61,189 nucleotides of DNA, filler included, from Candidatus Hydrogenedentota bacterium (GCA_040752395.1; 5 parts of 5 records of this genome joined end to end with filler, not necessarily neighbours in it), one strand, 5' to 3'. Positions 15,258-61,189 are shown, counted from the whole stretch's first letter. A program made the numbers and translations. Notes: generated by a model not told the origin, from the sequence alone.

Positions 15258-15414
15258 GCGCTTTTGTGATCCACACTATTGGGTTCTTGGGTTCTTGGGT
15301 TATTGCGTTTTTGCGTTTTTGCGCTCTACACAAAGTAGGAAAAACCAGATGTTTGTTTATCTTGCTTCTTGCTTCTACTTGATATTATTAGAGTTACAAC
15401 GTTTTTCAGAGGAG
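15246..15414 (+). repeat. Modular intergenic repeat; core 15379-15414 ends in the RBS of the next gene
   Basis: GAGTCGTCATGAGCGC + (TTGGGTTC)n + GCGCTCTACAC + (TTGCTTC)n + core; ATG 7 nt after GGAG. Confidence 0.92.
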
Positions 15415-15421
15415 GGATATT

Positions 15422-16618
15422 ATGCGATTTAAATTAATAATTTTTATGATTTCGGTTCTTTTAGTAACAACCAATATTTTTGCCTATGAAGAGGATACTG
15501 TTTTTTATGCAAAAGATATTCTTGAGGAAGTTTATCTTAGAGGACCTGCGTTTACTACTGATGAAATTGTTTATCACGATGGATTATTTTATGAGTTCAG
15601 TATCAGTTCTAAATTCGGTAATTACGAGGCTTATTCTGCGGAAGGTCTTTTAATAAGAAAACATGAGCTCGAAACTATGGATAGGTTTGAAGAAATCCGT
15701 GCCGGTGATGAGGTGTTAAAAGGGTTCGGAAATACTCTTGTTGGCGTGGGAAGAGGTGTTGGCGAAGCGGTACTGCATCCAATAGAAACTGTTAAACGTT
15801 TACCCAAAGGTATCGGTAAAATTTTTGGCCGTTTAATCCGTATCGGCAAAAAACATCCTGCTGAAGAGAATAAAACCATTATGCAGGTATTAAGCTCAGG
15901 TGAAAAACGTAAGATCGCTGTTGAACTTGAGGTCGACGTCTATTCTGATAATGAAAAACTTCAAGAGATGTTATACCAGCTTGCTAAATACAGAACTGTC
16001 GGCGGAGGCTCGTTAAAGATAGGTGCTTTTTTTATACCCGGCACAGCGGCTGTGGTCTATAGCATCGGAAGTATTAATCAGGATGTTAAAAATCTTATCA
16101 GAGATAATAATGCTATTGAACTTGAATATATTAATAATAACAAATTAAAAGACCAGGCAATTGATGAAGAATTGAGATTAAAATTCTTGAAGAATACTGT
16201 TTTTACGCCCACAGACCAGACAGTAATTGTTGAATGTCTTGAAAAAATCGGCGCTTTAGAAGGCGAGGATATTTATCTGGAACTCTGTTCCAATATAAAT
16301 GATAAAAAATCAGCTCTGTTTTATCGAAAAACCGTTGAAATACTACTTGTTATGAAAGAAAAAGGTTATCTGCTTGAAAAAATATACAATGTTGATGATG
16401 TTATCTGTGCTTTATGTGATGATATGATTTTTATAGTTCTTCCGTCTGATATGCTCTCTTATACACCTGAAATCGAAGAATTAATAAAGAACACAAAGAA
16501 CAGATTCGAAGATAAAAGCATCACTCTTCTTACATCCGGGAAAATATCTGACCGATTAAAAGAATATCTTGAGAATAAAACAACGATTGTTTTCCTTGAA
16601 AAATTCGGTAAAGAGTGA
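15422..16618 (+). CDS. Secreted hypothetical protein
   Basis: 398-aa ORF with signal peptide-like N-terminus (..TNIFA|YEE) and RBS. Confidence 0.75.
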   Translation: MRFKLIIFMISVLLVTTNIFAYEEDTVFYAKDILEEVYLRGPAFTTDEIVYHDGLFYEFSISSKFGNYEAYSAEGLLIRKHELETMDRFEEIRAGDEVLKGFGNTLVGVGRGVGEAVLHPIETVKRLPKGIGKIFGRLIRIGKKHPAEENKTIMQVLSSGEKRKIAVELEVDVYSDNEKLQEMLYQLAKYRTVGGGSLKIGAFFIPGTAAVVYSIGSINQDVKNLIRDNNAIELEYINNNKLKDQAIDEELRLKFLKNTVFTPTDQTVIVECLEKIGALEGEDIYLELCSNINDKKSALFYRKTVEILLVMKEKGYLLEKIYNVDDVICALCDDMIFIVLPSDMLSYTPEIEELIKNTKNRFEDKSITLLTSGKISDRLKEYLENKTTIVFLEKFGKE

Positions 16619-16763
16619 ACTGAACTACATTATCTTACTATAACGTAATGCCTCAGTCTCTGGTGGAGTTTCCTTAATCTTGCTTCTTAAGTAAATTCTA
16701 CCGCACCAATAACTGACGGATTACACTATAACCAATCAGGAGTGGTAGTTGGGGGGGTGTACT

Positions 16764-19058
16764 ATGGCTATCGGTGATAGTGTTATAAGAAAAGATGCTT
16801 ATGAAAAGGTTACAGGTAAATCTTTATATGCAGCTGATATAAAGATTCATGGCATGCTCTATGGCGGTGTTGTAAGAAGCCCATACTCTGCTTCTAAAAT
16901 TATAAAGATTGATAAAAATAAAGCACTTAAGATCCCTGGAGTTGTCTGTGTTTTAACTTACGAGGATATCCCCGGCAAAAATGTTGTACCGTTAATTAAA
17001 ATGGATTTGCCGGTTTTAGCGGATAAAGAAGCAAGATTTGCAGGTGAGGCTGTTGCGTTAGTAGCAGCAACAACAATAGATGCTCTGGAACAAGGTATAA
17101 TGAATGTTGAAGTCTCATACAAAGAGATTGAACCGGTGATTGTTCCCGAAGAAGCCTTAAAACCCAAAAGCCGTATCGTAAACCCGCATTTTGAAAATAA
17201 TATTATCTCTGAATATAGAATTATCAAAGGTAAAGAGATTGAAGATGCTTTCAGCGAATGTGATTATATTGTAGAAGATAGATACGAAACACCGCATCAG
17301 GAACACTCATATCTTGAACCCCAGGGTATGGTGGCTATACCGCATCCTGATGGCACAATGGAGGTCCAGGGCTCGATGCAATGTCCGTTTTATGTTCTTG
17401 ATGCTGTAGCATCTGTCCTTTCGCTACCGCGTGCTAAGGTAAGGATAATCCAGGCTTGTGTTGGTGGCGCATTTGGCGGCAAAGAAGACGTACCAAGTAT
17501 TGTAGCGGCTCACACAGCTTTACTCGCGTATCATACTCAAAAACCCATGCAGATAATATATTCACGGCAAGAAGATATGGAGAGTACATCTAAACGTCAC
17601 CCTGGAATAATTAAATATAAATCAGGTATAAAAAAAGATGGGACATTACACGCTGTTAAAGTTGAGTATATTTTAAACGGAGGTGCTTATGCTACGTTAA
17701 GTCCTGTTGTTATGTGGCGCGGTAATGTTCATTCAGTTGGACCCTATAGATGCCCGAATGTTTATGTTCATACCCGAGCTGTGTGTACAAATACTGTGCC
17801 TAACGGCGCTTTTCGTGGGTTCGGGACGCCACAGGTTATATTTGCAATAGAGAGTCAGATGGATAGACTTGCTTTTAAAGCAGGGTTGTCACCGCTTGAG
17901 ATAAGATTAAAAAATGGTTTAAAGATAGGGGATGAGACAGCAACGGGTCATAAGCTTACTGAAAGCGTTGGTTTTATAGATACACTTAAGGCTGCTTCAT
18001 TGGAGATGGACTATGAAAAAAAATTCGAAGGATATAAAAGTCAAAATGGAAGGATACGAAAAGGTATTGGAATAGGGGCATTAATATATGGGGTAGGATT
18101 AGGAGCTGGTGGCAAACACCTTGAGAAAGCAGGCGCATTTATTCAGATCCATAAAGATGGCTCAGTACAGGTCGCAGTAGGGCATACTGAGATGGGGCAG
18201 GGATTTTTGACTGTTGTAGCGCAAATAACCGCTGAAGCACTTGGGGTTGATTATGACAGAGTTCATATACTACCTATAGATACGAGCCGGGTGCCGGATT
18301 CAGGACCTACTGTTGCCTCACGCGCAACATTCATAAGTGGTAAAGCCATACTTGATGCTGCAGCGGCTATGAAAGAACGCATATTCACTCAGGCTGCAAA
18401 ACTACTTAACACAAAACCAGAAAATATAGAAGCAAAAAATGGAGAAATCTATCTTAAGTCTGATAATACTCAAAAAATTTCATATGATAAAGTGATATCT
18501 GAATGTTTTGCAAACAAGATACATCTTGCAGCATCTGGTTGGAGCGAGATGTCGAATACTTCATACAATATGGAAAACGGTCAGGGTGATGCATATTTCT
18601 GTTATACGTTCGCAACTAATATAGCTGAGGTCTCTGTTGATATGGAAACAGGTGAGGTAGAGGTTTTAAAAATCGCAAGCGCCTATGATTTAAAACCAGT
18701 AAATTATCAGCTTACAGAGGGTCAGATCGAGGGAGGTGTTACACAGGGGCTGGGTTATGCTCTTATGGAAGGACATTTACTTAAAAATGGTGTTATACAA
18801 AATAAAGATTTCTCGACATACCTGATACCTACATCCAAAGATGTACCCAAGATAAAACCAATAATTATACCAAATGAGTATAGTATGGGTCCGTTTGGGA
18901 TAAAAGGGTTTGGTGAGACACCCCTGATGGCCGTAGCACCAGCCATTGTGAACGCTATATATAATGCAACTGGTAAACGGATTACCATATTACCTGTAAC
19001 ACCTGAAAAGATACTCGGGCATTTTACAATTTCCAATTTCCAATTTTTACCCCGTTAG
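16764..19058 (+). CDS. Xanthine dehydrogenase-family molybdopterin-binding subunit
   Basis: RKDAYEKVTG, GGAFGGK, AFRGFG.PQ, EMGQG, TVASR, GQIEGG, KGFGE. Confidence 0.93.
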   Translation: MAIGDSVIRKDAYEKVTGKSLYAADIKIHGMLYGGVVRSPYSASKIIKIDKNKALKIPGVVCVLTYEDIPGKNVVPLIKMDLPVLADKEARFAGEAVALVAATTIDALEQGIMNVEVSYKEIEPVIVPEEALKPKSRIVNPHFENNIISEYRIIKGKEIEDAFSECDYIVEDRYETPHQEHSYLEPQGMVAIPHPDGTMEVQGSMQCPFYVLDAVASVLSLPRAKVRIIQACVGGAFGGKEDVPSIVAAHTALLAYHTQKPMQIIYSRQEDMESTSKRHPGIIKYKSGIKKDGTLHAVKVEYILNGGAYATLSPVVMWRGNVHSVGPYRCPNVYVHTRAVCTNTVPNGAFRGFGTPQVIFAIESQMDRLAFKAGLSPLEIRLKNGLKIGDETATGHKLTESVGFIDTLKAASLEMDYEKKFEGYKSQNGRIRKGIGIGALIYGVGLGAGGKHLEKAGAFIQIHKDGSVQVAVGHTEMGQGFLTVVAQITAEALGVDYDRVHILPIDTSRVPDSGPTVASRATFISGKAILDAAAAMKERIFTQAAKLLNTKPENIEAKNGEIYLKSDNTQKISYDKVISECFANKIHLAASGWSEMSNTSYNMENGQGDAYFCYTFATNIAEVSVDMETGEVEVLKIASAYDLKPVNYQLTEGQIEGGVTQGLGYALMEGHLLKNGVIQNKDFSTYLIPTSKDVPKIKPIIIPNEYSMGPFGIKGFGETPLMAVAPAIVNAIYNATGKRITILPVTPEKILGHFTISNFQFLPR

Positions 19059-19150
19059 ATAAGTTAAAATAATATTTAAATCTAACGGGGTGAAATTTGC
19101 AATTCGACATTTGCAGAATGTCGCCTTACTTCTCACCTCTGTCTTCTGTC
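19024..19150. mobile_element. Mini inverted-repeat element (ACCCCGTTAGAT...ATCTAACGGGGT) within a heptamer array
   Basis: Perfect 12-bp IRs at 19049-19060 and 19080-19091, flanked by TTCCAAT/TTGCAAT repeats. Confidence 0.6.
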
Positions 19151-19235
19151 TGCTTTATTTATTCACCACCTATAACTGAGAACGTGTGATATATTTTTTT
19201 ACACATTCTGAGGGGATAGGTTATAAAATAAGTAT

Positions 19236-20660
19236 ATGAAAAACAAAAAAGTACTCTTTTTAAACCCGCCGGGTAAAGAGATATATATTCGGGATTATTA
19301 TTGTTCCAAAGTCTCAAAAGCGTATTATTTACCACATCCTGTTGACCTCTTAATGCAAACAGGACATTTCGCTTCCAGAGGCTATGATATTAGTATTATT
19401 GATGCGATTGTGGATAGATTGAATGTTTCTATAACTATTAATAAAGTTAGAGAAATCAATCCTGATTTAATCATATCTCAATGCGGTTCCGTATCATTTA
19501 CTGAAGATAACTTGTTTTTTACTGAGATTAAAAAAATATTAAATGAAACAAAAATTTTATCATCAGGGGATCTGTTTTTAGAAGACCCGGGTTATTTTCT
19601 TGAAAATTATGCCTGGCTTGACGGCATAATAATAAACTGGTTTTGTGATGGCAGTCTAAATTATTTTGAGGGTAATTATGATATTGCAACTGGTCTGGTA
19701 TTTAAAAAGAACAATGAGATAAGAGCTATTAGTAAAAAGACCGAGGGAAAATATGTTTCAATACCAAGACCAAAACATGAATTATTCTTTAATAAAAAAT
19801 ACAGGTATGCTTATGTGACGCATTATCCAATGGCAACCGTATTAACGAATTATGGTTGCCCATTTCCCTGCTCGTTTTGTATTATGCCGAAACTCGGTTT
19901 TTTAGTAAGAAAACCCGAGGATGTTATAGATGAGATTAAATTTTTGAAAAACAATGGTATCAGATATATCTATTTTTCAGACCAGACTTTTTATGCTCAT
20001 CCACAGGCAACAGATGCGATACTTGATTTTATGATAGAAGAAAAGATAGATATAGAATGGTGTTGTTTTACAAGAGTTGATAGAGTTGACGAAAAGAGAC
20101 TGAAGAAAATGAAAAAAGCAGGGTGTAATGTTATTATGTTTGGAGTAGAATTTGCTGAAGATGAATTATTAAATAGATATAAAAAGAATTATAGTTTAGA
20201 ACAGGTCAGAGAAACATTCAGACTTGCTAAAGATATAGGTTTGAAAAGGATGGGGACGTTTCTTATAGGTCTGCCAGGTCAGACCGAAGAATCAATTAGA
20301 AAGACGCTGAATTTAGCTATCAAGCTCGAGGCTGATTATGCTTCTTTTAATGTCGCTGTTCCACGAGCTCAAACCTCATTCAGGGAAGAAGCGCTCTCTA
20401 AAAAACTGATCATGGGAAATGATAGAATTATGGATCAATCAGGGAGTTTTATAACTATGGGAACAGGTGTTCTTTCCGCAGAAGATATATACCGTCTTAA
20501 AAACGAAGCATATTGTAAATTTTATTTTAGATTAGATTATTTATTAAAGCGATTATTAAAGATAAGAACAATGGATGAATTCAAAACACATTTTATAGAG
20601 GCTTTTTATATATTAAAAGGGATATTAAGTAAAGAGAAAACGAAAGGAGCTACGAGATAA
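19236..20660 (+). CDS. B12-binding-domain radical SAM protein
   Basis: GCPFPCSFC (CxxxCxxC); N-terminal VLFLNPP domain; FLIGLPGQT. Confidence 0.9.
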   Translation: MKNKKVLFLNPPGKEIYIRDYYCSKVSKAYYLPHPVDLLMQTGHFASRGYDISIIDAIVDRLNVSITINKVREINPDLIISQCGSVSFTEDNLFFTEIKKILNETKILSSGDLFLEDPGYFLENYAWLDGIIINWFCDGSLNYFEGNYDIATGLVFKKNNEIRAISKKTEGKYVSIPRPKHELFFNKKYRYAYVTHYPMATVLTNYGCPFPCSFCIMPKLGFLVRKPEDVIDEIKFLKNNGIRYIYFSDQTFYAHPQATDAILDFMIEEKIDIEWCCFTRVDRVDEKRLKKMKKAGCNVIMFGVEFAEDELLNRYKKNYSLEQVRETFRLAKDIGLKRMGTFLIGLPGQTEESIRKTLNLAIKLEADYASFNVAVPRAQTSFREEALSKKLIMGNDRIMDQSGSFITMGTGVLSAEDIYRLKNEAYCKFYFRLDYLLKRLLKIRTMDEFKTHFIEAFYILKGILSKEKTKGATR

Positions 20661-21818
20661 ATGATTACACTCAATATGGCTCGATGGATAGATAGAAAAA
20701 TAGGTAGACCTATATGTTTTTTAATCTCTATATTAATAAAGTTTCGAAAAAGAAAGATACCAGATTTAAACAAAGTAAAAAAAATTTTAATAGTAAAGAT
20801 GTTTGGATTCGGCACGATTATTCTTGCAAGCCCGGTATTTAAAATAATTAAAGATAATTGCGCTGATGTTAAATTATATTTCTTAACGCTTTCGCAAAAT
20901 AAAAATTTGTATGACGGCAGCAGATATCTTGATGACATAATTTATTTCGATATCAGTTCAATAACCAGATGCATAACCTCATTTATTCGGATAGTCGCAT
21001 GGCTATGGAAAGAAAGATGTGATGTGGTATTTGATTTTGAGATAGCTTCAAGAGCTACTGCTATAATATCATTTTTGAGTTTTAAGAGTCTTACTGTTGG
21101 ATATGCGCCAGCCGGCAGTGGTAAGGATATTTTCGATGTAACGATACCTTATAATGAATCAATACATATAACACGTATTTTTTTAAGAAGCCTGGATGCG
21201 GTTGGCTTTAGAATAAAAAATATAAATCTTTTAGAACTACCTATAACTGATACGGAAAAAAATAATGTAAATAATTTTCTTTTTAAAAATAACATTACTG
21301 ATTTCATCGTATTCAATCCCAACACAAGCGAACTTGCCATGGAAAGAATGTGGCCACTTGAATATTTCGCTTCACTCGCTAAAAAAATATTAAACGAGTA
21401 TAATAATATAAAATTAATTTTGGTTGGTGCCAGAGAAGATAAAGAAAGGTGTGAGATTGTAAAAGATTTGATACGGGACGAAAATAAAGTTTTCCTGACC
21501 ACCGGTATATTCTCTATTCGGGAGACAGCGTTTCTTTTAAGTAAAGCAAAAGTATTTATAAGTAATGATTCGGGTCCGCTACATTTAGGTGTTTTAGCCG
21601 GGGTACCCACTATCGGCCTTTTTGGACCTGAAACGCCTGTTCTTTATGGACCACTCGGAGAAAAACACAAAACTATCTCTTCTGGCGAATTATGCAGCCC
21701 CTGTATTACGACATTTAAAGACAAAGTTGTTACGTGTAAGAAAAACGCTATCTGTATGAAAAAAATAACAGTTGAGCAGGTATTTGATGCGGTAAAAGAA
21801 AAAATTATATCAGGGTAA
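20661..21818 (+). CDS. Glycosyltransferase family 9 (heptosyltransferase-like)
   Basis: ERMWP.EYF, FISNDSGPLHLG, LFGPE, C-terminal Cys cluster. Confidence 0.9.
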   Translation: MITLNMARWIDRKIGRPICFLISILIKFRKRKIPDLNKVKKILIVKMFGFGTIILASPVFKIIKDNCADVKLYFLTLSQNKNLYDGSRYLDDIIYFDISSITRCITSFIRIVAWLWKERCDVVFDFEIASRATAIISFLSFKSLTVGYAPAGSGKDIFDVTIPYNESIHITRIFLRSLDAVGFRIKNINLLELPITDTEKNNVNNFLFKNNITDFIVFNPNTSELAMERMWPLEYFASLAKKILNEYNNIKLILVGAREDKERCEIVKDLIRDENKVFLTTGIFSIRETAFLLSKAKVFISNDSGPLHLGVLAGVPTIGLFGPETPVLYGPLGEKHKTISSGELCSPCITTFKDKVVTCKKNAICMKKITVEQVFDAVKEKIISG

Positions 21819-23531: not shown

Positions 23532-23599
23532 CTAACAACCCCTTTATTCACCCCCAAAATTATATTGCCAGCTAACACATTGTCAAATAGTATTCCCTT

Positions 23600-23640
23600 A
23601 GAACCTGTGAAAAGATTGTAGTGAGCACCTTCAGGTGCGT
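23600..23640 (+). repeat. GTAG REP-like hairpin element, copy 1 of 2
   Basis: GAACCTGTGAAAAGATT-GTAGTGA-GCACCT-TC-AGGTGC; homolog at 46493-46533 on the minus strand. Confidence 0.7.
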
Positions 23641-23663
23641 TTTTAAGAAGTGGATTACAAATT

Positions 23664-24376: not shown

Positions 24377-24518
24377 TTACGTACTTCTCGCTTCTTCTAA
24401 CCTCTTTCTCTTTTTTTTTACTTCTTGCCCTTCTTCCTTTGCTCTTTTATTACACCTTTAAACTTTTTTTAATAACTCCTGAAATTTTAATTTTTCAGAG
24501 ATTTTAAACCTTTAAAAA

Positions 24519-24747
24519 TTATTCCTCTTCGTTACTACTCTCTTCCTCTCCACCTTGTTCTTCACCACCCTGGTCTTCAGCTGGCTGTTCTTCCTTAGCG
24601 GGTTGCTCCTCTTCTGCTGGCTGTTCCTCTTCAGAAGGTTCCTCTCCTGCCTCTTCCTCAGCCACCTGCTCTTCTTCAGTAGTTTCCTCTTCACCTGCTT
24701 CTTCAACACCTTCTTCTTCACCCGCAGGTTCTTCAGTTGCTTCTTCT
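24519..24747 (-). CDS. Glu-rich C-terminal tail of a protein cut by the contig end
   Basis: Own translation EEATEEPAGEEEGVEE...QGGEEESSNEEE*; the ORF track shows only the other frames. Confidence 0.7.
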
Positions 24748-24945: not shown

Positions 24946-25212
24946 GTCTCCTCTGAAAAACGCTGTAACTCTAATAATTCGGGCTACAGGCTACGGGCTA
25001 CGGACTACAGCCGGCTGGAGCCAAAAGCCCGGAGCCTGAAGCCAACATATCATCTTTAGTTTTTCATATATTGTGTAGAGCGCAAACGCGCTCATGTTGA
25101 CTCCTTCGAAAAACATTGTAACTATAATAATATCAAGTAGAAGCAAGAGGCAAGAAGCAAGGTAATGGAAAACTGTTGTAGGACAGGAAAGAACTTTGTG
25201 CCTTTGTGCCTC
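24946..25212 (-). repeat. Tandem double unit of the modular intergenic repeat (cores 24948-24978 and 25101-25136)
   Basis: Core-GAAGGAG runs directly into TCAACATGAGCGC hairpin, GGCT heptamer module and a second core that abuts the clpX stop. Confidence 0.92.
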
Positions 25213-27327: not shown

Positions 27328-27357
27328 AGAGTTAGACGAAATTCTTTTGAATGTCGA

Positions 27358-27475
27358 GAGGAGTCAACATGAGCGCGGTTTGCGCTCTACACAAAGGATG
27401 AAAAACCAGATGTTTGTTTATCTTGCCTCTTGCTTCTACTTGATATCATTAGAGTTACAATGTTTTTCAGAGGAG
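27358..27475 (+). repeat. Modular intergenic repeat; core 27440-27475 ends in RBS
   Basis: Starts and ends with GAGGAG; hairpin GAGCGC-GGTTT-GCGCTC-TAC; ATG 7 nt after the core. Confidence 0.92.
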
Positions 27476-37334: not shown

Positions 37335-37600
37335 CTCCTCTGAAAAACGTTGTAACTCTAATAATATCAAATAGAAGCAAGAGGCAAGAAGCAAGATAAC
37401 GCAAAAACGCAATAACCCAATAACCCAAGAACCCAATAGTGTAGAGCGCAAACCGCGCTCATGACGACTCCTCTGAAAAAGTTCGGAGCTCGGAGCTCGG
37501 ATCTATTATTACGAACTCCTAACTCCTATCTTTTTCCTACTTTGTGCCTCTGTGCCTCTGTATCTCTTGCTTCTTGCCTCTTTCGTTATCTTGCTTCTCC
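37335..37600 (-). repeat. Modular intergenic repeat; core 37335-37370 ends in the ilvE RBS, with a second core end at 37468-37483
   Basis: TTTTTCAGAGGAG at both ends of the hairpin/8-mer/7-mer unit; further GGAGCTC, TGTGCCTC and TTGCTTC arrays. Confidence 0.92.
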
Positions 37601-45291: not shown

Positions 45292-45297
45292 AAATCT

Positions 45298-45430
45298 CTC
45301 CTGAAAAACATTGTACTCTAATAATTCGGGGTACAGGCTATGGACCATAGCCGGCTGGAGCCCGAAGCCCGGAGCCTGGAGCCTGAAGAGCCCGTAGTCT
45401 GCAATCTGAAGTCTGTGGTCCTGAGGCCGA
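45298..45430 (-). repeat. Modular intergenic repeat between kdsD and kdsC; core 45298-45325 ends in RBS
   Basis: CAGACTT/CAGGCTC heptamers, AGCCGGCT centre, core with small deletions; ATG 6 nt after GGAG. Confidence 0.88.
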
Positions 45431-45431
45431 A

Positions 45432-48976: not shown

Positions 48977-49092
48977 CTCCTCTGAAAAACATTGTAACTA
49001 TAATAATATCAAGTAGAAGCAAGAGGCAAGAAGCAAGAAGCAAGAAGCAAGATAACGGAAGAAGTGAGAGGTATCAGGACAGGCTACAGGCT
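48977..49092 (-). repeat. Modular intergenic repeat; core 48977-49012 ends in RBS; contig breaks inside it
   Basis: Five TTGCTTC/TTGCCTC units plus the CCTGATACCTCTCACTTCTTCCG module identical to the copy in 61117-61140. Confidence 0.92.
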
Positions 49093-49192: not shown

Positions 49193-49537
49193 CAATATTT
49201 ATCACATTCTGAGCATGATGGCAATTATGTTGTAAGTGGTACAAATTACACCATAGAAGGTGATTTAGATGAGTGGCAGGTTTCTTTAATAGTTGCTTAC
49301 CAGTATATCCAGGCATTACCCTATGCAGGTATTAAATTCAGTGATTGGGATACTGACTGGGCTATATGGCAGACAGATGTACCTGCTACACGAAGTTCTG
49401 GTCAAGACGAGGCAGAGGATAATTTTGGTGTAATAGTTGGTTGTGATTTTTATTTTGAGCGAGACTGGAAACTGAATTTAGAGGGTAGATTCTGTGACGA
49501 GACCGCGTTTTCAGCCTCGTTAGGTTATACTTTCTAA
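49193..49537 (+). CDS. C-terminal part of an outer-membrane beta-barrel (chlamydial MOMP-like pattern)
   Basis: Own translation ...DEWQVSLIVAYQYIQALPYAGIKFSD...NFGVIVGCDF...LNLEGRFCDETAFSASLGYTF*; terminal YxF beta-signal; missing from the ORF track. Confidence 0.75.
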   Translation, partial: QYLSHSEHDGNYVVSGTNYTIEGDLDEWQVSLIVAYQYIQALPYAGIKFSDWDTDWAIWQTDVPATRSSGQDEAEDNFGVIVGCDFYFERDWKLNLEGRFCDETAFSASLGYTF

Positions 49538-49608
49538 GATAATATAGACACTTTATTTCAGGATAAAGTAGAAAACAAAAAGCCACGGCCGTTATAGATA
49601 ATTACATT

Positions 49609-49646
49609 TAAAACCCCGGGTATTTTATTAAGTTCTCGGGGTTTTA
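49609..49646 (+). terminator. Probable terminator hairpin
   Basis: TAAAACCCCG...CGGGGTTTTA downstream of the OMP gene. Confidence 0.6.
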
Positions 49647-49718
49647 TATTTGTAATTCATCAGAACCTAATTCAATTTCAGGTACATTTTGAAAATATCA
49701 CAGGGGATGAAATTAATT

Positions 49719-49969
49719 ATGACAATAACGAATGCAAAAGATGCAACGATAAGATCAAAAATACAAAATGTTGTTAAACAATTGGTAGAAAAATATAGTC
49801 CTCATAAAATAATATTATTTGGTTCAATGGCTGATAAAGCAGAGCAGCTATAGATTTTCGTTATCCTGGTGAGGTTGCTGACAAGAATGAAGCAGAAGAA
49901 TGTATAAGAATTGCTTGTTATATGAGAGATGAGATTAGAAGAGCCCTTTTACCCCAAAAAAGCCTTTAA
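49719..49969 (+). pseudogene. Internally deleted MNT-HEPN toxin-antitoxin pair
   Basis: MNT N-terminus (LVEKYSPHKIILFGSMA) joined out of frame to a HEPN C-terminus (AIDFRYPGE.ADKNEAEECIRIA). Confidence 0.7.
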
Positions 49970-49993
49970 GTTAAGTTTACATAATGCCGAAAA
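49967..49993 (+). promoter_or_regulatory. Candidate sigma-28 (FliA) promoter for flgI-flgJ
   Basis: TAAG-N15-GCCGAAAA vs consensus TAAA-N15-GCCGATAA, upstream of flagellar genes. Confidence 0.5.
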
Positions 49994-50044
49994 TATAATA
50001 AGAACCGACTCACATTTTTTCATAAGAGTTGATATGATATTCCT

Positions 50045-50092
50045 TACTTTTGCCTTTTAACTTTTTATAGGAGTTACAAAGTTTTTCAGAGG
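50045..50092 (+). repeat. Truncated repeat core at the flgI RBS
   Basis: GAGTTACAAAGTTTTTCAGAGG, 9 nt before ATG, preceded by TACTTTT/GCCTTTT/AACTTTT heptamers. Confidence 0.8.
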
Positions 50093-50101
50093 GTTTGTGA
50101 G

Positions 50102-51202: not shown

Positions 51203-51226
51203 AAGCAAGAGCCGGGCTAAGATTTT

Positions 51227-51643: not shown

Positions 51644-51801
51644 TGAAATGAGACATGGAGGATTTTTAAAATATATAAAACAATAAAGCCCTATTTTATC
51701 TATTTTAGGTTTGAATATCTTAAAAATTAATACAAAAAAATTATAAAAAAATAAATTTAAAACTTGACAAAAAAACAAATTAAATATTAGTAAAGCCTTT
51801 A

Positions 51802-51900
51802 ACTCATATAATCTTGGTAATTGGTCCAGGAGTCTCTACAAAGAGGCCGTATAACCTCTTTACCACCACACCAATTAGTGTGGTGGTGGTAACTATGAGT
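51802..51900 (+). ncRNA. Purine (guanine-type, C74) riboswitch aptamer with an inserted 30-nt hairpin
   Basis: P1 ACTCATA/TATGAGT, UAA junction, P2 TCTTGG/CCAGGA with L2 GG, J2/3 GTCTCTAC, P3 AAAGAGG/CCTCTTT with L3 CCGTATAA; upstream of the pur operon. Confidence 0.88.
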
Positions 51901-51921
51901 AAATAGACAAATGCTCAATTA

Positions 51922-51995
51922 GACCTTTTAAGGGGGTCGGGCGAGATCTATTTTACGGTTAGAATGGCTTCCATGGATCTCGACCGACCTTTTTT
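51922..51995 (+). terminator. Probable riboswitch expression platform (terminator with a competing helix)
   Basis: GGGGTCGG-G-CGAGATCTA pairs with TGGATCTCG-A-CCGACCTT followed by a T-run; its 5' arm can instead pair with upstream GACCTTTT. Confidence 0.55.
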
Positions 51996-52055: not shown

Positions 52056-52222
52056 AAGACAGAAGACATTAGGGTTCAGGAGTTGAGGAGTTGAAGAGTT
52101 ACGAATCTTTAAACACTTTAACTCTTGAACTCCTGAACTTATCAACTTTATGTTTGTTTATCTTGCTTCTTGCCTCTTGCTTCTACTTGATATTATTATA
52201 GTTACAAAGTTTTTCAGAGGAG
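52056..52222 (+). repeat. Modular intergenic repeat; core 52187-52222 ends in the purC RBS
   Basis: GGAGTTGA 8-mer array and its inverse, ATGTTTGTTTATC, (TTGCTTC)n, core; ATG 7 nt later. Confidence 0.92.
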
Positions 52223-52229
52223 GTAATAT

Positions 52230-52940
52230 ATGGCTTTATTGTACGAGGGCAAAGCAAAGAGGATGCACACAACCACTGACCCGGAACAGCTTATTATGGA
52301 GTTCAAAGATTCAGCTACAGCGTTTAATGGCAAGAAGAAAGCTGAATTAAAAAACAAGGGTAAAATCAATAAAAAACTGACGTTATATTTTTTTGAGATG
52401 CTTGAAGACCACGGCATACCAACACATCTTATCAGAGATTTAAGTGAGAATGAAATACTTGTAAAACGTGTTAGCATTATACCGGTTGAGCTTATTGTTC
52501 GCAACATAGTTGCTGGTAGTCTTTCTAAACGTTCAGGGCTACCCGAAGGGACTGCGCTTGATTTTCCAGTTATTGAATATTATTATAAAAGCGATGAGTT
52601 AGGAGACCCTATGATTAATAGTGACCATATATTGGTTTTAAATTTAGCAACAGAAGAAGAGTTGCAGATAATGAGAAGTATGGCTTTAAAAATTAATGAG
52701 ATCCTTTCTTTATTTTTTGATAAAGCAGGTATATTACTTGTTGATTTTAAACTTGAGTTTGGTAAGACTTCGCTTAATGAGATAGTTTTAGCTGATGAGA
52801 TATCACCTGATACCTGTAGGTTCTGGGATAAAGAAACAGGTAAAAAACTTGATAAAGACAGGTTCAGACGAGATTTAGGCGATGTGATAGAGAGTTATAT
52901 GGAGGTTTTAGGGAGAGTAGAAAATGCATTGTGTTGTTGA
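52230..52940 (+). CDS. purC: SAICAR synthetase
   Basis: LYEGKAK, VELIVRN, LVDFKLEFG, ADEISPDTCRFWD. Confidence 0.96.
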   Translation: MALLYEGKAKRMHTTTDPEQLIMEFKDSATAFNGKKKAELKNKGKINKKLTLYFFEMLEDHGIPTHLIRDLSENEILVKRVSIIPVELIVRNIVAGSLSKRSGLPEGTALDFPVIEYYYKSDELGDPMINSDHILVLNLATEEELQIMRSMALKINEILSLFFDKAGILLVDFKLEFGKTSLNEIVLADEISPDTCRFWDKETGKKLDKDRFRRDLGDVIESYMEVLGRVENALCC

Positions 52941-53403
52941 AATTATTAATAGATTCTCATCCCCTAAAGATTTACAAGAGATAATCTATGATAGAACCGT
53001 TACAGGTTATTCGTATGCAAAGACTAAGGTATATGTAATAGAATATGAAGGTGAGGAGAGTTTAATAAAGAAGTTTGTTGAAATGGTATTTGCTGATAAG
53101 GTTGTAGATAATAAAGAGTATAATGGCAAGCCTTTTTATTCCGATGCTATTTACATTATAGATGTTGAATTAAAACCAGGGGTTCTTGATTTAGAAAAAG
53201 AATATGCTTTTAGATATAAGGACATTTTATCAAACGAGGGGCTGGTTATAAAAGATTTGAAAATTTCACAAAGGTATTATCTTTTTGGTAAACACAGTGA
53301 AAGGGTAAAAGAGGTGTTTATAAAATCAGGTCCGATTAATTCTGTGATACATAGTTATAAAGAAGTAAGAAGTATCAGAAAAAAGAAGCAAGAAGCAAGA
53401 TAA
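52924..53403 (+). CDS. PurS-like (tandem) FGAM synthetase accessory protein
   Basis: Lies between purC and purL; VELKPGVLD, NSVIH motifs resemble PurS / the PurL N-terminal domain. Confidence 0.6.
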   Translation: MHCVVEIINRFSSPKDLQEIIYDRTVTGYSYAKTKVYVIEYEGEESLIKKFVEMVFADKVVDNKEYNGKPFYSDAIYIIDVELKPGVLDLEKEYAFRYKDILSNEGLVIKDLKISQRYYLFGKHSERVKEVFIKSGPINSVIHSYKEVRSIRKKKQEAR

Positions 53404-53520
53404 CGGAAAGGAAAGAAAAGGTAAAGGTTGAGGTTGATATTATTAGAGTTACAAAGTTTTTCAAAGGGGGGCAGATAAATTTGCAATTTGCAATTTATAA
53501 TGGAGCGAAGCGACAAGAAG
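53365..53520 (+). repeat. Modular intergenic repeat before purL (inverted heptamer module, core 53434-53469, TTGCAAT array)
   Basis: AAGCAAGAAGCAAGATAACGGAA (reverse module), TTGATATTATTAGAGTTACAAAGTTTTTCAAAGG, (TTGCAAT)2-GGAGCGAAGCGAC. Confidence 0.88.
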
Positions 53521-53522
53521 AG

Positions 53523-55913: not shown

Positions 55914-56614
55914 AATTCCCGGGCACTAATTGTGACAGCGAGACTGATAGAGCATTAAGAACAGCCGGGTTTGATAATGATATCATCCCTATTAATTTAC
56001 TTAACAGAGATATGATTTTTGAATATTCGATGGTGGTTATACCCGGAGGCTTTAGTTATGGCGATTATATTAGGGCTGGCAGGCTTGCTCAACTTGAGCT
56101 TGGCTTAAAGATAGGTGATGCGTTGTTTGAGTTTAAAGAAAAGGGTGGCTTGATACTTGGGATTTGTAATGGTTTTCAGATATTATTGCAGCTTGCTCTT
56201 TTGCCGCAAGCTAGTCTTACGACGAACATCTCTGGAAGATTTATCTGTAAATGGGTAAAATTAAAAATTATAAATAGAAAAACACCGTTTTTATATCTTT
56301 TACCTTGGAAGTTTGAACTACCTGTTGCTCATATTGAGGGCAGATTTGTGACAAGTGAGAATAAAGCAAATGAATACGTTGATTCTGGGTTAGCTTCGCT
56401 TGTATATGAAGAAAATATAAACGGCTCAGAATGTGGAATAGCAGGCTTGAATGATGAGACAGGCCGGGTATTTGGTTTGATGCCGCATCCTGAACGATTT
56501 TTATTTTATGATGATTATTACAATATTGATAAAAGTAGTAATGAGAGGTATGGTAGTGGTTATATATTTTTTAGGTCTGTGTATGAATATCTGAAAGTAG
56601 GGGGTAAAATGTAG
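55883..56614 (+). CDS. purQ: FGAM synthetase glutaminase subunit
   Basis: FPGTNCD, PGGFSYGD, GICNGFQ, MPHPER. Confidence 0.96.
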   Translation: MEERVRSLLLKFPGTNCDSETDRALRTAGFDNDIIPINLLNRDMIFEYSMVVIPGGFSYGDYIRAGRLAQLELGLKIGDALFEFKEKGGLILGICNGFQILLQLALLPQASLTTNISGRFICKWVKLKIINRKTPFLYLLPWKFELPVAHIEGRFVTSENKANEYVDSGLASLVYEENINGSECGIAGLNDETGRVFGLMPHPERFLFYDDYYNIDKSSNERYGSGYIFFRSVYEYLKVGGKM

Positions 56615-58006
56615 ATGGAGCTTAAGGACAAATGCGGGCTATTTGGGGTATATAACAGTCCGACCGCTTCGAAAGACATATATTTAGGCCTTTATGCACA
56701 GCAGCACAGAGGCCAGGAAAGCGCTGGAATGGTTGTCTGTTCAGAGGATGGGTCATTCAATGTTCATAAAGGAATCGGGCTTGTTACAAATGTCTTTAAT
56801 GAATCCACAATAGAGAAACTTAAAGGTGGATTTGGTATAGGACATGTTAGATATTCTACATCAGGCGATACAGACATAAAAAACATACAGCCTATTGTTG
56901 TTAGCTACAGAAACAATGTATTGGGACTTGCACATAACGGGAACCTTATCAACGCATTAAGGTTAAGGGAAGAACTTGAGGATAAAGGCTCGATATTTAC
57001 AACCACAAGTGATACAGAGGTAATGCTTCATAAAATTGTAAAATCACAAAAAGTAAAGCCAGTGGATAAAATAGTTGAGGGTCTCTATGGTGTAGAGGGT
57101 GCATTTTCTATCCTACTTTTATTTGAGATGGGGATAGCTGCTGTAAGAGACCCGTGGGGTTTCAGACCTTTATTTTTCGGGAAACGGGATGATTCATTTT
57201 ATTTTGCCTCTGAAACCTGCGCATTTGATTTACTCGGTGTCAATGATTATAGAGAAGTTGAGCCAGGCGAGGGTTATTACATATCAGAGAAAAGGATTGA
57301 GAAATTCAGGCTTTTATCTTTTGCGAGACGATGTTTATGCATTTTCGAGCTTATATATTTTTCAAGACCTGATAGTACTTATAAAGGTTCATCGATACAT
57401 AATTATAGACTCAAATTAGGGATGCAGCTTTATAAAGACCAGAAAGCAGAAGCTGATATGGTTATAAGTGTACCTGATTCCTCCAATTCCGCAGCGCTTG
57501 GTTATTCTTTAGCATCAGGGATACCATTTAATATAGTAATGATAAGGAGCCATTATACAGGCAGGACATTTATAGCACCTTATCAGAGTATCCGGGATTT
57601 TAAAGTAAAGAAAAAGTTTAATATTATAAAAGACGTTGTAAAAGATAAGCGAGTTGTTGTTGTAGATGACTCGATCGTTCGTGGTACCACTGCAAAAAAG
57701 ATTGTGAAATTAATAAGAGAGAGCGGCGCAAAAGAGATACATTTAAGAATAGCATCGCCTATGATTAGATACCCCTGTTATTTTGGTATCGATATGCCTG
57801 ATTTTAATGAACTTTTTGTAAATAAAATACCATCAGATAAATTTAATGGCTACATCGGCGCTGATTCAATCGGTTATCTGAAATTAGAGAGTTTGCAGAG
57901 CATATTTGGTAATAAATTTTGCAAAGCTTGTTTTGATGGTCAGTATCCGATGGAGATAAAAAATATCGAAGATACACTTATTAAAAAGACAAAGCAAGGT
58001 AGATGA
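56615..58006 (+). CDS. purF: Amidophosphoribosyltransferase
   Basis: Propeptide then CGLFG, QHRGQES, GHVRYST, VVDDSIVRGTT, Fe-S cysteines. Confidence 0.96.
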   Translation: MELKDKCGLFGVYNSPTASKDIYLGLYAQQHRGQESAGMVVCSEDGSFNVHKGIGLVTNVFNESTIEKLKGGFGIGHVRYSTSGDTDIKNIQPIVVSYRNNVLGLAHNGNLINALRLREELEDKGSIFTTTSDTEVMLHKIVKSQKVKPVDKIVEGLYGVEGAFSILLLFEMGIAAVRDPWGFRPLFFGKRDDSFYFASETCAFDLLGVNDYREVEPGEGYYISEKRIEKFRLLSFARRCLCIFELIYFSRPDSTYKGSSIHNYRLKLGMQLYKDQKAEADMVISVPDSSNSAALGYSLASGIPFNIVMIRSHYTGRTFIAPYQSIRDFKVKKKFNIIKDVVKDKRVVVVDDSIVRGTTAKKIVKLIRESGAKEIHLRIASPMIRYPCYFGIDMPDFNELFVNKIPSDKFNGYIGADSIGYLKLESLQSIFGNKFCKACFDGQYPMEIKNIEDTLIKKTKQGR

Positions 58007-58998
58007 GGGACAGGATGTTTACTTATAAACAGGCAGGCGTAAACATAGATACAGCTGAGAAAATCGTGGGAGAGATAGCTGTGCTCCAAAAAAAAACAGA
58101 AATAACTAAAAAATTGTTAAATAAGTTTGGTTTTTTTTCTAGCTGCTATGTTTTAAAAGGATATAAAAACCCTGTGATGGTGGCAACCTGTGATGGTGTC
58201 GGAACCAAACTTAAATTGCTAAAAGATTATGATTTGATAGAAACAGCTGGTTGGGACGTCGTTGCTATGAATATCAATGACATCCTTACAACAGGTGCGA
58301 TGCCTTTAATGTTTTTAGATTATATAGGGATGAATAAGATTGATAGTGTATTAATAAAGAGGTTGATTAAAGGCATTACATCTGCTTGTGTTGAGAGTGA
58401 ATGTATTCTGGCTGGTGGCGAAACAGCTGAAATGCCAGGACTTGTTAAACCAGATTCTTTTGAATTGGCTGGTTTTTGCGTTGGAGTTTGTGAAAAGGAT
58501 GAATTAGTAAAACCTGAAACTATAATAGAAGGTGATATAGCTTTAGGATTTAAATCAAATGGTTTTCATTCAAATGGGTTCAGTTTAATTAGAAAGATAT
58601 TAGAAGAGAGAAAAAAAGACTTTAATATAAAAGAGATAAAAAATTTACTTAACAGAACTAAAATTTATTATAAGGAGATAAAAAGGTTAAAAGAGCTAAA
58701 AGTAATGATTAAAGGGATAGCTCATATTACAGGTGGCGGCATCCCGCGTAACTTATCCAGGATTATTAATAAAGGTTTGGGGGTTAGAATAAAATTACCC
58801 AGGATACAATGCGAGAGTATCATAAAAATATTGAAATATGTTGATAAAAGAGAGGCTATAAATGTTTTTAATATGGGGATCGGATTAATTATTATCTGCG
58901 ATAAAAAATATTATGATAAAATTGTAGAGAATTTCAAAGAGATTTATTTTCTTTCCGAGGTGGAAAAATCAGATATTACTTGCAGGGTATTTATATGA
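58003..58998 (+). CDS. purM: AIR synthetase
   Basis: YKQAGVNI, DGVGTK, GGETAEMPG, GFHSNG, HITGGG. Confidence 0.95.
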   Translation: MRDRMFTYKQAGVNIDTAEKIVGEIAVLQKKTEITKKLLNKFGFFSSCYVLKGYKNPVMVATCDGVGTKLKLLKDYDLIETAGWDVVAMNINDILTTGAMPLMFLDYIGMNKIDSVLIKRLIKGITSACVESECILAGGETAEMPGLVKPDSFELAGFCVGVCEKDELVKPETIIEGDIALGFKSNGFHSNGFSLIRKILEERKKDFNIKEIKNLLNRTKIYYKEIKRLKELKVMIKGIAHITGGGIPRNLSRIINKGLGVRIKLPRIQCESIIKILKYVDKREAINVFNMGIGLIIICDKKYYDKIVENFKEIYFLSEVEKSDITCRVFI

Positions 58999-59588
58999 CC
59001 ATAAAACTCGCAGTACTTGCCTCAGGCAGAGGTTCCAATTTTCAAGCTATATTACAATCGATTCTAAAAAATGAGCTTGATGCAACTATTAAAGCACTTA
59101 TCTCAGATAATAAAGATGCAAAAGCTTTAACTATCGCAAAAGAAAATAATATACCCACATTTTATATTCCGTATGATAAAAATAATCGGATTGAGTTTGA
59201 GAAGAAAGCCATAGAGATTATTGATAGTTATTCCTGTGATTTAATAATTCTTGCTGGCTTTATGAGGATACTCACTTCTTTTTTTGTAAAATATTACGAA
59301 AATAAGATACTCAATATCCATCCATCGTTGCTACCAGCTTTTAAGGGGCTTGATGCTCAGAAACAGGCACTTTTATATGGCGTGAAAATTACTGGCTGTA
59401 GTGTTCATATAGTTACAGAGAATCTCGATGATGGTCCGATTTTGGCACAGAGAGCTGTCCCGGTGTATGATAATGATACAGTGGAATCGCTTTCTCAAAG
59501 AATATTAGAACAAGAACATATATTGTATGTGGAAGCAATAAAGATTTATGAAAAGAAATATATAGATGGTAGAAGACAGAAGACATGA
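58995..59588 (+). CDS. purN: GAR transformylase
   Basis: LASGRGSN, LAGFMRIL, NIHPSLLP, GCSVH, DDGPI. Confidence 0.96.
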   Translation: MTIKLAVLASGRGSNFQAILQSILKNELDATIKALISDNKDAKALTIAKENNIPTFYIPYDKNNRIEFEKKAIEIIDSYSCDLIILAGFMRILTSFFVKYYENKILNIHPSLLPAFKGLDAQKQALLYGVKITGCSVHIVTENLDDGPILAQRAVPVYDNDTVESLSQRILEQEHILYVEAIKIYEKKYIDGRRQKT

Positions 59589-59668
59589 AGTCAAACTTCT
59601 CACTTTTTCATTATCTTGCCTCTTGCTTCTACTTGATATTATTATAGTTACAATGTTTTTCAGAGGAG
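59571..59668 (+). repeat. Modular intergenic repeat; core 59633-59668 ends in the purD RBS
   Basis: (AGAAGAC)2, TTATCTTGCCTCTTGCTTCTAC, core; ATG 6 nt after GAGGAG. Confidence 0.92.
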
Positions 59669-59674
59669 AAACAA

Positions 59675-60931
59675 ATGAGGGTCGCAGTACTTGGTAAAGG
59701 TGGCAGAGAACATTGTATAGTGTGTGAATTAATTGAATCAAAGACCAGACCCGAGATATATGTATATCCAGGCAGCGATGCAATGTTAAAAATAGCAAAA
59801 AGAATTGAGATACCACAAGCGAGTACTGGTTGTGATGAACTTGTTAAAACAATGAAAAAGATAAGGATAGATTTATGTATTGTAGGTTCTGAACAGTATC
59901 TTGAAGATGGAATAGCTGATAGATGTATAGAGAACAGGATTGCGGTGTTTGGACCCGTTAAATCATCAGCAAGATTAGAGACAAGTAAGGTTTTTGGTAA
60001 AGAATTTATGAGAAGAAACAATATACCAACCGCTGATTTTAATATAGCTTATAATGATAAAGAACTAATGAATTTGATAAAAGTGTATCCTGTAGTATTA
60101 AAATACGACGGTTTAGCAGCTGGCAAAGGCGTATCTATTTGCTATGATGAAAAAGAAGTAAAAAATTACATCAATGATGTCTTTACGTTAAAAAAGTTTG
60201 GACAGATTAAACCTGTTATAGTTGAGGAGTGTTTACAAGGAAAAGAACTATCAGTAATCTGTGCTGTATCAGATGGCGCATATCGGATTTTTCCATGTGC
60301 AAGGGATTATAAAAGATTATTCGATGGAGATAAAGGACCGAATACTGGTGGGATGGGAGCGGTTGCTTCTACTTCACTTATTACAGCAAATCTTTTTCTT
60401 GAAATAAAATCTAAAATAATCGAACCTACTATCAAAGCACTATTGAAAAATGAATTGTCTTATCGTGGATTTTTATATTTCGGATTAATACTAACGGATG
60501 CTGGACCAAAAGTATTAGAATATAATTGCAGGTTCGGGGACCCTGAAGCCCAGGCTATACTACCATTGATTGATGGTGATTTTACTCGTTTTATATATAA
60601 AGCTGCAAAAGGGGTGATTGATGATAGTTTAATATCATCAAGGAAGGGCTGGTGTACCTGTCTTGTATTAGCTTCACAGCGATACCCTTATGAATCAGAT
60701 AAAGGTGCTGAAATAAAAGGACTCGAAGCTATTCGTATGGCAAGGGTTTATCACTCAGGAACATATTTTGAGAATGGTTGTTATAAAGTTTCAGGTGGCA
60801 GAGCATTAAGTGTGAGCGCTATTGGTTATAATCGAGAGAGTGCTGTAAGTAGAGTGTATTCTGAGATAGAAAAAATCTATTTTGAAGGTATGCAATATCG
60901 TAGAGATATAGGCAGGTTACACTTTGAATAG
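59675..60931 (+). CDS. purD: GAR synthetase
   Basis: GKGGREH, DGLAAGKGV, GPNTGGMG, EYNCRFGDPE. Confidence 0.96.
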   Translation: MRVAVLGKGGREHCIVCELIESKTRPEIYVYPGSDAMLKIAKRIEIPQASTGCDELVKTMKKIRIDLCIVGSEQYLEDGIADRCIENRIAVFGPVKSSARLETSKVFGKEFMRRNNIPTADFNIAYNDKELMNLIKVYPVVLKYDGLAAGKGVSICYDEKEVKNYINDVFTLKKFGQIKPVIVEECLQGKELSVICAVSDGAYRIFPCARDYKRLFDGDKGPNTGGMGAVASTSLITANLFLEIKSKIIEPTIKALLKNELSYRGFLYFGLILTDAGPKVLEYNCRFGDPEAQAILPLIDGDFTRFIYKAAKGVIDDSLISSRKGWCTCLVLASQRYPYESDKGAEIKGLEAIRMARVYHSGTYFENGCYKVSGGRALSVSAIGYNRESAVSRVYSEIEKIYFEGMQYRRDIGRLHFE

Positions 60932-60939
60932 CCTACTTA

Positions 60940-61189
60940 TTTTTTCGAGGTAGTCAATATAAGCGCGGTTTGCGCTCTACACTATTGGGTTCTTGGGTTC
61001 TTGGGTTATTGCGTTTTTGCGCTTTACACAACGTATGAAAAACTAAAGATGATATGTTGGCTTCAGGCTCCGGGCTTTTGGCTCCAGCCGGCTGGAGTCC
61101 GTAGCCTGTAGCCTGTCCTGATACCTCTCACTTCTTCCGTTATCTTGCTTCTTGCCTCTATTTGATATTATTAAAGTTACAATGTTTTT
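60940..61189 (+). repeat. Most complete copy of the modular intergenic repeat; window ends inside the core
   Basis: TTTTTCGAGGTAG, GTAG hairpin, TTGGGTTC array, ATGAAAAACTAAAGATGATATG, GGCT/AGCC mirrored heptamers, CCTGATACC module, core from 61162. Confidence 0.93.

Follow-up and report, generated by a model that had tools for sequence, protein, structure and literature searches.

Why does one and the same 36-nt sequence run into the Shine-Dalgarno (SD) sequences of unrelated genes? This question is raised by a repeat in a 61,189-nt stretch of DNA from a Candidatus Hydrogenedentota bacterium (GCA_040752395.1); the whole stretch is hereafter called the window. The window is composed of five contigs, each of approximately 12 kb, that are stitched with synthetic N spacers, and its G+C content is 34%. 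A non-coding mosaic intergenic element of about 80–240 nt carries this 36-nt core as its invariant 3′-terminal module. The first-pass annotation of this DNA had treated the 36-bp repeat itself as the unit, which is too short. Judging from the sequence, the element could be a non-autonomous one that is copied in at SD sites and swaps the host SD for its own leader and SD. We give this reading an even chance of being right.

The core is readily separated from chance matches. Its 21-nt 3′ part has 10 matches in the window at up to three mismatches, and none in 100 shuffles. The 34-nt core pattern has eight matches, and again none in shuffles. An nhmmer profile built on the eight full-length copies recovers exactly 12 copies in the window, with E-values from 3.6e-13 to 5.3e-5. 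The four copies beyond the full-length ones are recovered by the profile at 24948–24978 (−), 45301–45325 (−), 50071–50092 (+), and 61162–61189 (+, cut by the contig end). The next match is a remnant, given last in the list below, and noise appears only from an E-value of 1.5. This clean gap indicates that the copies are either well preserved or absent. By pattern and profile searches, all 12 copies of the first-pass annotation are found at the positions and on the strands it had given. They are distributed, as it had claimed, on four independent contigs (contigs 2–5, about 49 kb), with a density of about one per 4–5 kb. Contig 1 has no core copy, yet the same accessory modules are present at its start. 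The copies are as follows.

15379–15414 (+), copy A: last bases GAGGAG; the ATG (15422) of a 398-aa protein follows after 7 nt
24948–24980 (−), copy B: 5′ part replaced (GAATTATTAGAG...); followed by a 17-codon open reading frame (ORF) and the contig end
25101–25136 (−), copy C: changed SD, GAAGGAG; what follows is the left end of unit B, no gene
27440–27475 (+), copy D: 7 nt before the ATG (27483) of a GGDEF diguanylate cyclase
37335–37370 (−), copy E: 6 nt before the ATG (37328) of ilvE
45298–45327 (−), copy F: 5′ part replaced as in B; 1-nt deletion; SD CAGGAG; 6 nt before the ATG (45291) of kdsC
48977–49012 (−), copy G: 9 nt before the ATG (48967) of a TPR protein
50071–50093 (+), copy H: 3′ part only; CAGAGG 9 nt before the ATG (50102) of flgI
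52187–52222 (+), copy I: 7 nt before the ATG (52230) of purC
53434–53469 (+), copy J: SD region CAAAGGGG; 11 nt before the TTG start (53481) of purL
59633–59668 (+), copy K: 6 nt before the ATG (59675) of purD
61162–61189 (+), copy L: cut by the contig end
37468–37480 (−), 13-nt remnant (TTTTTCAGAGGAG) left by the 3′ end of an older core: immediately before unit E; E-value 0.14

The 3′ boundary of the core is sharp, and the 5′ side decays blockwise. When 11 copies are aligned on GTTTTTC, there are 0–2 mismatches per column through CAGAGGAG, and 7–8 in the following two columns. The mean pairwise identity of the eight full-length copies (ungapped) is 93% in the core, 68% at −25 to −1, and 28% at −60 to −26. 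In the 30 nt 3′ of the core, it is 30%. These values agree with the earlier statement that the similarity ends right after GAGGAG. At the SD end, copies F (CAGGAG), H (CAGAGG, then GT), and J (CAAAGGGG) deviate from the consensus. That these three deviate only at the last SD bases fits junctions formed within the SD.

All copies have the same orientation as whatever follows. Of the 11 uncut copies, nine stop 6–11 nt before the start of a real gene, and the distance from the last base of the core to the start codon is 4–11 nt over all 11. The nine genes are those of the 398-aa protein, the diguanylate cyclase, and the TPR protein, and ilvE, kdsC, flgI, purC, purL, and purD. The other two uncut copies are C (25101, −), which precedes the ATG of the next element, and B (24948, −), whose 17-codon ORF lies about 50 nt from the contig end. 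NCBIfam and Pfam scans, which covered 47 ORFs, with the region 49193–50101 outside them, identify the GGDEF cyclase, ilvE, kdsC, the TPR protein, flgI, purC, and purD. The 398-aa protein has no family match in NCBIfam or Pfam, and its N-terminus resembles a signal peptide. Seven of the gene identities proposed at first are thus supported by NCBIfam; the ninth gene, purL, was overlooked with its TTG start, and the proposed spacing of 6–9 nt to the ATG was too narrow in comparison with the ranges above.

The spacers between the core and the start codon vary in length and sequence among copies, as expected if each gene kept its own. With the sharp 3′ boundary and a separate SD-to-start spacer for each gene, the docking of the repeat on SD sequences can be upheld. 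Seven of the 12 copies lie between co-directional genes, and there the entire gap is made of element modules. Such intercistronic sites, which had been described as lying inside operons, include kdsD–kdsC, lolD–ilvE, and three sites in the cluster purC-orf-purL-purQ-purF-purM-purN-purD.

The modules are arranged in a fixed order. The left end is TC(A/G)(A/T)C-ATG-AGCGCGGTTTGCGCTC-TACAC and contains a 6-bp GC hairpin. After it, up to three optional modules can follow: an octamer array in which TTGGGTTC drifts to TTGCGTTT, a “ATGAAAAAC” block, and a long imperfect hairpin of GGCTNCN heptamers and their complements around CTCCAGCCGGCTGGAG. The core is preceded by the heptamer CTTGCYT, whose copy number ranges from 2 to 5 among units, and then CTAC. 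The 3′ end of the element is an AU-rich unstructured leader that finishes in CAGAGGAG. Units A (15249–15414), B (24948–25100), D, E, and L are complete. The units and their upstream parts are as follows.

15249–15378 (+), upstream modules of unit A: left end TCGTC-ATG, degenerate hairpin, octamer array (TTGGGTTC/TTGCGTTT), M module, two CTTGCTT
24981–25100 (−), upstream modules of unit B: left end TCAAC-ATG, GC hairpin, M module, palindromic GGCTNCN/GTAGCCY heptamer hairpin; DNA fold z-score −4.6
27364–27475 (+), unit D, complete: left end, hairpin, M module, two CTTGCYT, core
37335–37467 (−), unit E, complete: left end, hairpin, octamer array, three CTTGCYT, core
45292–45431 (−), unit F in the kdsD–kdsC gap: the whole gap consists of repeat modules
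up to the contig end at 49092 (−), upstream part of unit G: five CTTGCYT and further modules
52073–52222 (+), unit I: long hairpin of 8-nt units (52073–52139; z-score −6.3), three CTTGCYT, core
53386–53399 (+), upstream part of unit J: inverted CTTGCTT array
59591–59668 (+), unit K: short left end TCAAAC, two CTTGCYT, core; fills the purN–purD gap
60954–61189 (+), unit L, complete and the longest: left end carrying ATA in place of ATG, hairpin, octamer array, M module, palindromic heptamer hairpin (z-score −3.5), two CTTGCYT, core

The two ends of the element differ in folding. Five of six upstream modules fold as single-strand DNA hairpins with z-scores of −2.8 to −6.3; the module of unit F has a z-score of −0.3. 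The GC hairpin of the left end, 8 nt from the junction, has DNA fold z-scores of −3.0 and −2.8. The right end, composed of the heptamers and the core, has z-scores of +1.0 and +1.3, and 172 and 189 of 200 shuffles fold at least as well. RNA folds of the leader agree with the DNA folds, and show no structure beyond that of shuffles. An unstructured right end suits an open translation-initiation region. The mini-ORFs that begin in the element have no residues in common but MSA(V/F); their frames, lengths (10–42 aa), and end points vary. A repeat of small-protein or type I toxin genes was considered and rejected, as the mini-ORFs are conserved in none of these three respects.

Tandem arrays of period 7 or 8 with stepwise unit drift are present in the intergenic DNA of all five contigs, and many of them are paired with complements, which yields long hairpins. 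Examples are at 22–46, 107–132, 15279–15327, 24982–25010, 37396–37438, 37543–37581, 45359–45388, 49015–49052, 52074–52139, and 60985–61019. Some arrays reach the ends of genes: AGAAGAC is repeated 2.7 times at the 3′ end of purN (59571–59590), and ATTTGCA is repeated 2.7 times in the first codons of purL (53478–53496).

The left junctions also provide evidence for SD sequences as the sites of insertion. The complete left end is preceded by an SD-like sequence in all five cases: GAGAGGAG in unit D, TTTTTCAGAGGAG of the core remnant in unit E, the whole core C in unit B, TTTTTTCGAGGTAG in unit L, and CTGATGAG in unit A. The short left end TCAAAC between purN and purD is also preceded by ACATGAAG. 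This abutment of the left end on SD-like sequences is what insertion at SDs predicts. Two of the preceding sequences can be located as follows.

27356–27363 (+), host-side GAGAGGAG: abuts the left end of unit D
60940–60953 (+), degenerate core 3′ end: precedes unit L

GAGGAG is indeed found at both ends of 27358–27475 and of 37335–37480. Its interpretation as a target duplication holds only in part. GAGGAG or a variant flanks five units, with GATGAG as the left copy at unit A, but in two of the five the left copy belongs to an older core. Unit B begins directly after core C, and the internal modules of B and C differ, which indicates serial insertion after the SD of another unit rather than tandem duplication. 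The left end of unit A is located inside the last codons of RmuC, and the RmuC stop codon TGA is included in the ATGA of the element. When unit A is deleted on paper, a compact overlapping pair of RmuC and the next gene remains. Deletion on paper appears to restore compact junctions likewise at D, E, and K.

Substitutions in the core are not distributed evenly. The 13 substitutions among the eight full copies are concentrated in two of the 36 columns, positions 13 and 22, which hold eight of them (permutation P approximately 4e-5). Each of the two positions has two or three alleles, and these are seen in several combinations. With this clustering and almost no decayed copies, 34 of the 36 positions look constrained, or the copies are young. 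In the first case, selection acts on the 34 positions, for a host function or for copying competence; in the second, several sources gave rise to the copies in recent times. Position 22 is A in the neighbors H, I, and J (50071, 52187, and 53434), and T in K and L (59633 and 61162). This post hoc observation hints at local copying or gene conversion.

The following process can be supposed for an element that is copied in at SD sites. The element would be inserted at, or directly after, an existing SD sequence, either by a trans-acting enzyme or by recombination in which the SD serves as microhomology. The old host SD would then face the element’s own ATG, and a short non-conserved ORF would be opened there. 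The terminal leader and the SD of the element would take over translation initiation, and the gene would keep its original SD-to-start spacer. Such an “SD swap” could make insertion nearly harmless, even inside operons or behind a riboswitch. The non-autonomous element targeting ribosome-binding sites (RBSs) that was proposed at first thus keeps its docking on SDs, to which the left ends abutting SDs can be added, and is revised in its unit, its target duplication, and its end structure. A further-reaching version seems somewhat unlikely to us: in this SD-homing, an unseen enzyme or RNA-templated copying would use the RBS as an attachment site, with hundreds of copies genome-wide, each exchanging a host SD. 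If RNA is the template, the 3′-terminal GAGGAG might anneal to the complementary strand of another gene’s SD and act as the primer. The constant 3′ end and the variable or truncated 5′ ends could be the footprint of such a copying mechanism.

Several facts weigh against insertion at SDs. No transposase, recombinase, or reverse transcriptase family, including Y1 HUH or RAYT, is seen among the 47 ORFs scanned, just as the first-pass annotation had noted for the window. By inspection, no terminal inverted repeats are shared by the left end (TCAACATGAGCGC...) and the right end (CTCCTCTGAAAAAC... in reverse complement), and folding in comparison with shuffles gives no hairpin at the right end. The ends of the element match no known transposition chemistry. 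Only 5–6 of the 12 copies have a defined left end, and the others are mosaic or have an undefined left boundary. An equally good explanation of the strong conservation would be that the sequence serves the host, for example as a promoter, leader, or binding site. Selection for a working SD, with no targeting involved, could also have sharpened the boundary. At 61 kb in total, the sample is small. It is from sequence that we infer the insertion, its mechanism, the swap, the tolerance of the host, the effect on expression, and mobility itself. Besides, no relative carrying the family is found among the matches listed for the genome collection or in the metagenome and viral scans.

In the genome collection, the matches listed for the 21-nt core are at one locus, which lies inside an IF3-like coding sequence and is the single copy in that genome. 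In 201 genomes of the order concerned, Thermodesulfovibrionales, which was chosen via this chance match and whose kinship to the window is not established, 11 have single matches (8 in the IF3 motif VTMFFRGRE and 3 others), and there is no repeat family. The chance 21-nt match corresponds to the IF3-like motif KVTMFFRGRE (L001, 5010–5030 (−), and L002–L008 and L010), with one copy per genome. Metagenome contigs contain no match to the 3′ half of the core. The 5′ half matches 27 loci there, which were dismissed as chance, as their flanks and 3′ halves are unrelated. Viral contigs contain no core match. A distant search of plasmids with unit L gives just two 36-nt matches, both to the octamer array. 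Against Rfam, the sole match of the whole window at or above the gathering score is a purine riboswitch, so that no family corresponds to the core; the segment 59560–61189, containing units K and L, has no match at E-values up to 1. A search of a limited collection of papers, with supplements outside its scope, found no description of an SD-anchored dispersed repeat.

The host represents an orphan lineage; it is a deeply branching, uncultivated, flagellated bacterium. In a protein search, the closest proteins are 54–55% identical for purD, and 65% and then 54% identical for EF-G. The nearest purD relatives are from metagenome-assembled genomes of Verrucomicrobiota, Lindowbacteria, and Kiritimatiellia. 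Three of the ten contig ends (1, 49092, and 61189) fall within mosaic elements, as would be expected of a family with many copies. Such repeats probably fragment the assembly, and their number is probably an underestimate. If so, the family breaks the assemblies of this lineage.

The most developed alternative is that the repeat is a portable promoter-leader-RBS cassette, a “putative mobile promoter”, which is spread by recombination and retained by selection, the host benefiting from a standard signal for expression, with SD docking as a by-product. In this cassette, a leader of about 25 nt would connect the extended −10 TGATATTAT to a strong SD. Indeed, the extended −10, read as TGnTATTAT, is seen in 9 of the 12 copies. 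TTGCCT-18-TATTAT, which matches 9 of 12 positions of a promoter, is present in units I and K and is found in copies with T at position 13. The candidate tyrS promoter has a similar distance between its −10 and the ATG, and the core is constrained. The upstream regions of the diguanylate cyclase gene and the 398-aa protein gene are 94.4% identical over 54 nt within −150 to −50, where putative mobile promoters (PMPs) are defined by at least 80% identity over at least 50 nt between non-homologous genes (PMC3575422). The other pairs share 15–45 nt, as compared among 45 of 47 upstream regions, two being skipped because they run into N spacers. The riboswitch upstream of purC points in the opposite direction. 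The aptamer (RF00167; 45.9 bits, gathering score 37) is at 51784–51915 (+), and a terminator-like hairpin with a T-run at 51935–51995 (+) lies between the aptamer and unit I. They are about 235 nt upstream of purC, and most of this gap consists of repeat modules. Unit I is thus located between the riboswitch terminator and purC, and two further copies lie downstream in the pur cluster. An intact riboswitch and terminator here argue against a strong promoter in the core, by which purine control would be bypassed. Copies B, F, and H are without the TGn −10, yet they keep the 3′ 22 nt. Promoter-like matches are not enriched in contig 5 (61 versus 48.8 ± 7.1 in shuffles), a promoter needs no 34 fixed positions among 36, and the SD before every complete left end would be left unexplained. 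A promoter cassette is, on balance, unlikely. The extended −10 suggested at first is present in most copies, but the promoter activity of TGATATTAT is probably weak, and we treat the leader and SD as the main contribution of the core. Sigma-54 and sigma-28 motifs, and TTGATA as a −35, were rejected by eye.

The shared 5′ leader might instead be the site of a global post-transcriptional regulator, either a protein or a small RNA, and the copies would then form a translational regulon. This we consider quite unlikely: the 93% identity over 36 nt and the shared flanks (units A and D are 94% identical over 54 nt) indicate descent by copying and not convergence, no pathway is common to the genes, and the nested copies and the left-end junctions are not explained. 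It would account for a constraint that covers 34 of 36 nt and leaves just two positions free, 9 nt apart, for the overlap of the site with the SD, and for the AU-rich, unstructured RNA, and PMC4679880 describes a precedent of start-codon-oriented repeats before unrelated genes. As a separate observation, a 93-aa RRM-domain RNA-binding protein (Pfam RRM_1, 2.9e-23) is encoded at 9214–9495 (−), and could be a candidate if the shared leader is bound by a protein. Growth in situ without transposition would combine 7- or 8-nt slippage with gene conversion that homogenizes the sequences upstream of SDs. Period-7 and period-8 arrays beside most copies and in other intergenic gaps, array units that drift stepwise from their neighbors (e.g., those of the octamer array from the hairpin arm GGTTTGCGCTC), the variation of the heptamers from 2 to 5, and the A at position 22 common to the neighbors H, I, and J are compatible with it. 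It is nevertheless very unlikely. Gene conversion requires two-sided homology, and the similarity stops at GAGGAG; with homology on one side, each new site needed an illegitimate or site-specific event. Slippage, moreover, cannot make the same non-repetitive 36-mer on four contigs. An artefact of assembly or stitching has a negligible probability. The window does consist of five contigs joined by synthetic spacers and three contig ends are inside repeats, but 11 copies lie within contigs and have unique genes on either side, the copies differ from one another and are shorter than typical reads, and the repeats of the spacers are a separate family.

Other features of the window are independent of the core. 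A 96-nt direct repeat with 93% identity (2789–2884 and 5735–5830, +) brackets genes for an R.HinP1I-like endonuclease (3137–3793) and a DNA methylase (3796–5685); the bracketed genes of 2789–5830 may be a restriction-modification cassette inserted with duplication. The ORF at 24512–24747 (−), cut by the contig end, contains periodic repeats of 15, 18, and 45 nt and is read as the low-complexity acidic tail of a protein. Two short ORFs at 49671–49969 (+) resemble, by translation, broken fragments of a nucleotidyltransferase and a HEPN-type protein, and a partial ORF is present in 49193–50101.

Several families of bacterial repeats share the mosaic architecture. BIME/REP, pneumococcal BOX, RIME, Correia elements, and cyanobacterial STRR heptamers are modular, hairpin-rich, and intergenic, with variable modules, and they have possible effects on transcript ends and promoters. 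REP/BIME are located after the 3′ ends of genes, and Correia elements are bounded by terminal inverted repeats and duplicate TA. We know of no such mosaic repeat with a fixed terminal module that anchors it on the SD. An MITE, i.e., a derivative of a DDE-transposon, was considered and fails, as there are no terminal inverted repeats. IS200/IS605 derivatives (PATE) and REP/REPIN-RAYT have subterminal hairpins at both ends and are inserted 3′ of a short specific sequence with no duplication. One of these traits, insertion 3′ of GAGGAG, would fit the present element. An origin from either group fails with the unstructured right end.

Correia, ERIC, and REPIN elements have been mentioned as promoter carriers in the study of PMPs by Nijveen, Matus-Garcia, and van Passel (PMC3575422). 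PMPs are highly similar upstream regions of non-homologous genes in one genome, and their route of spread is unknown. They are defined away from the RBS, and their families are mostly pairs (PMC3575422). The present element, in contrast, is best conserved at −45 to −5, including the SD, has a sharp boundary, and reaches about one copy per 4 kb. If it is copied in at SDs, it would offer a concrete family in which to seek the enzyme or the recombination route behind “mobile promoters”.

The TAACTGA heptamers of marine Beggiatoaceae (MacGregor 2015; PMC4679880) are direct repeats in intergenic regions that are oriented toward the start codons of unrelated genes, and some arrays overlap the end of the upstream ORF. 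That paper proposes the binding of a global post-transcriptional regulator, and places the end of the array about 1 nt before the start codon, where it mostly replaces a canonical RBS. The present element differs from what is described there: a non-repetitive 36-mer with a canonical SD is located at the start, and its heptamers are different and lie upstream.

MIRUs (mycobacterial interspersed repetitive units) are the closest in arrangement. According to the review PMC12548453, they are short intercistronic repeats within operons, co-oriented with the flanking genes, and they are thought to be mobile and to be inserted at translation starts so that expression is preserved. The present element is alike in being intercistronic, co-oriented, and inside operons, with 7 of 12 copies lying between cistrons in the orientation of the genes. 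The docking is different. MIRUs dock at the start codon and depend on an ORF of their own, which is coupled at −4. The junction of the present element is instead the SD, and a new SD comes with it. In MIRU-like repeats, the internal ORF overlaps at its ends with the stop and start codons of the genes on either side. In unit A, the RmuC stop codon overlaps the ATG of the element (ATGA), and the mini-ORF of unit D ends 8 nt past the ATG of the gene, but the frames and ends differ among copies. The internal ORFs of the present element are conserved neither in frame nor in end point, and no tandem arrays of whole units are seen, only the heptamers being variable in number, which sets it apart from MIRUs. 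If insertion at SDs is correct, the start-codon docking of MIRUs would be extended to the RBS. The element would then represent a distinct lifestyle of selfish DNA in gene-dense bacterial genomes, at almost no host cost even in operons. It would also be a natural standardized cassette for translation initiation, whose conserved unstructured leader can be tested as a portable RBS.

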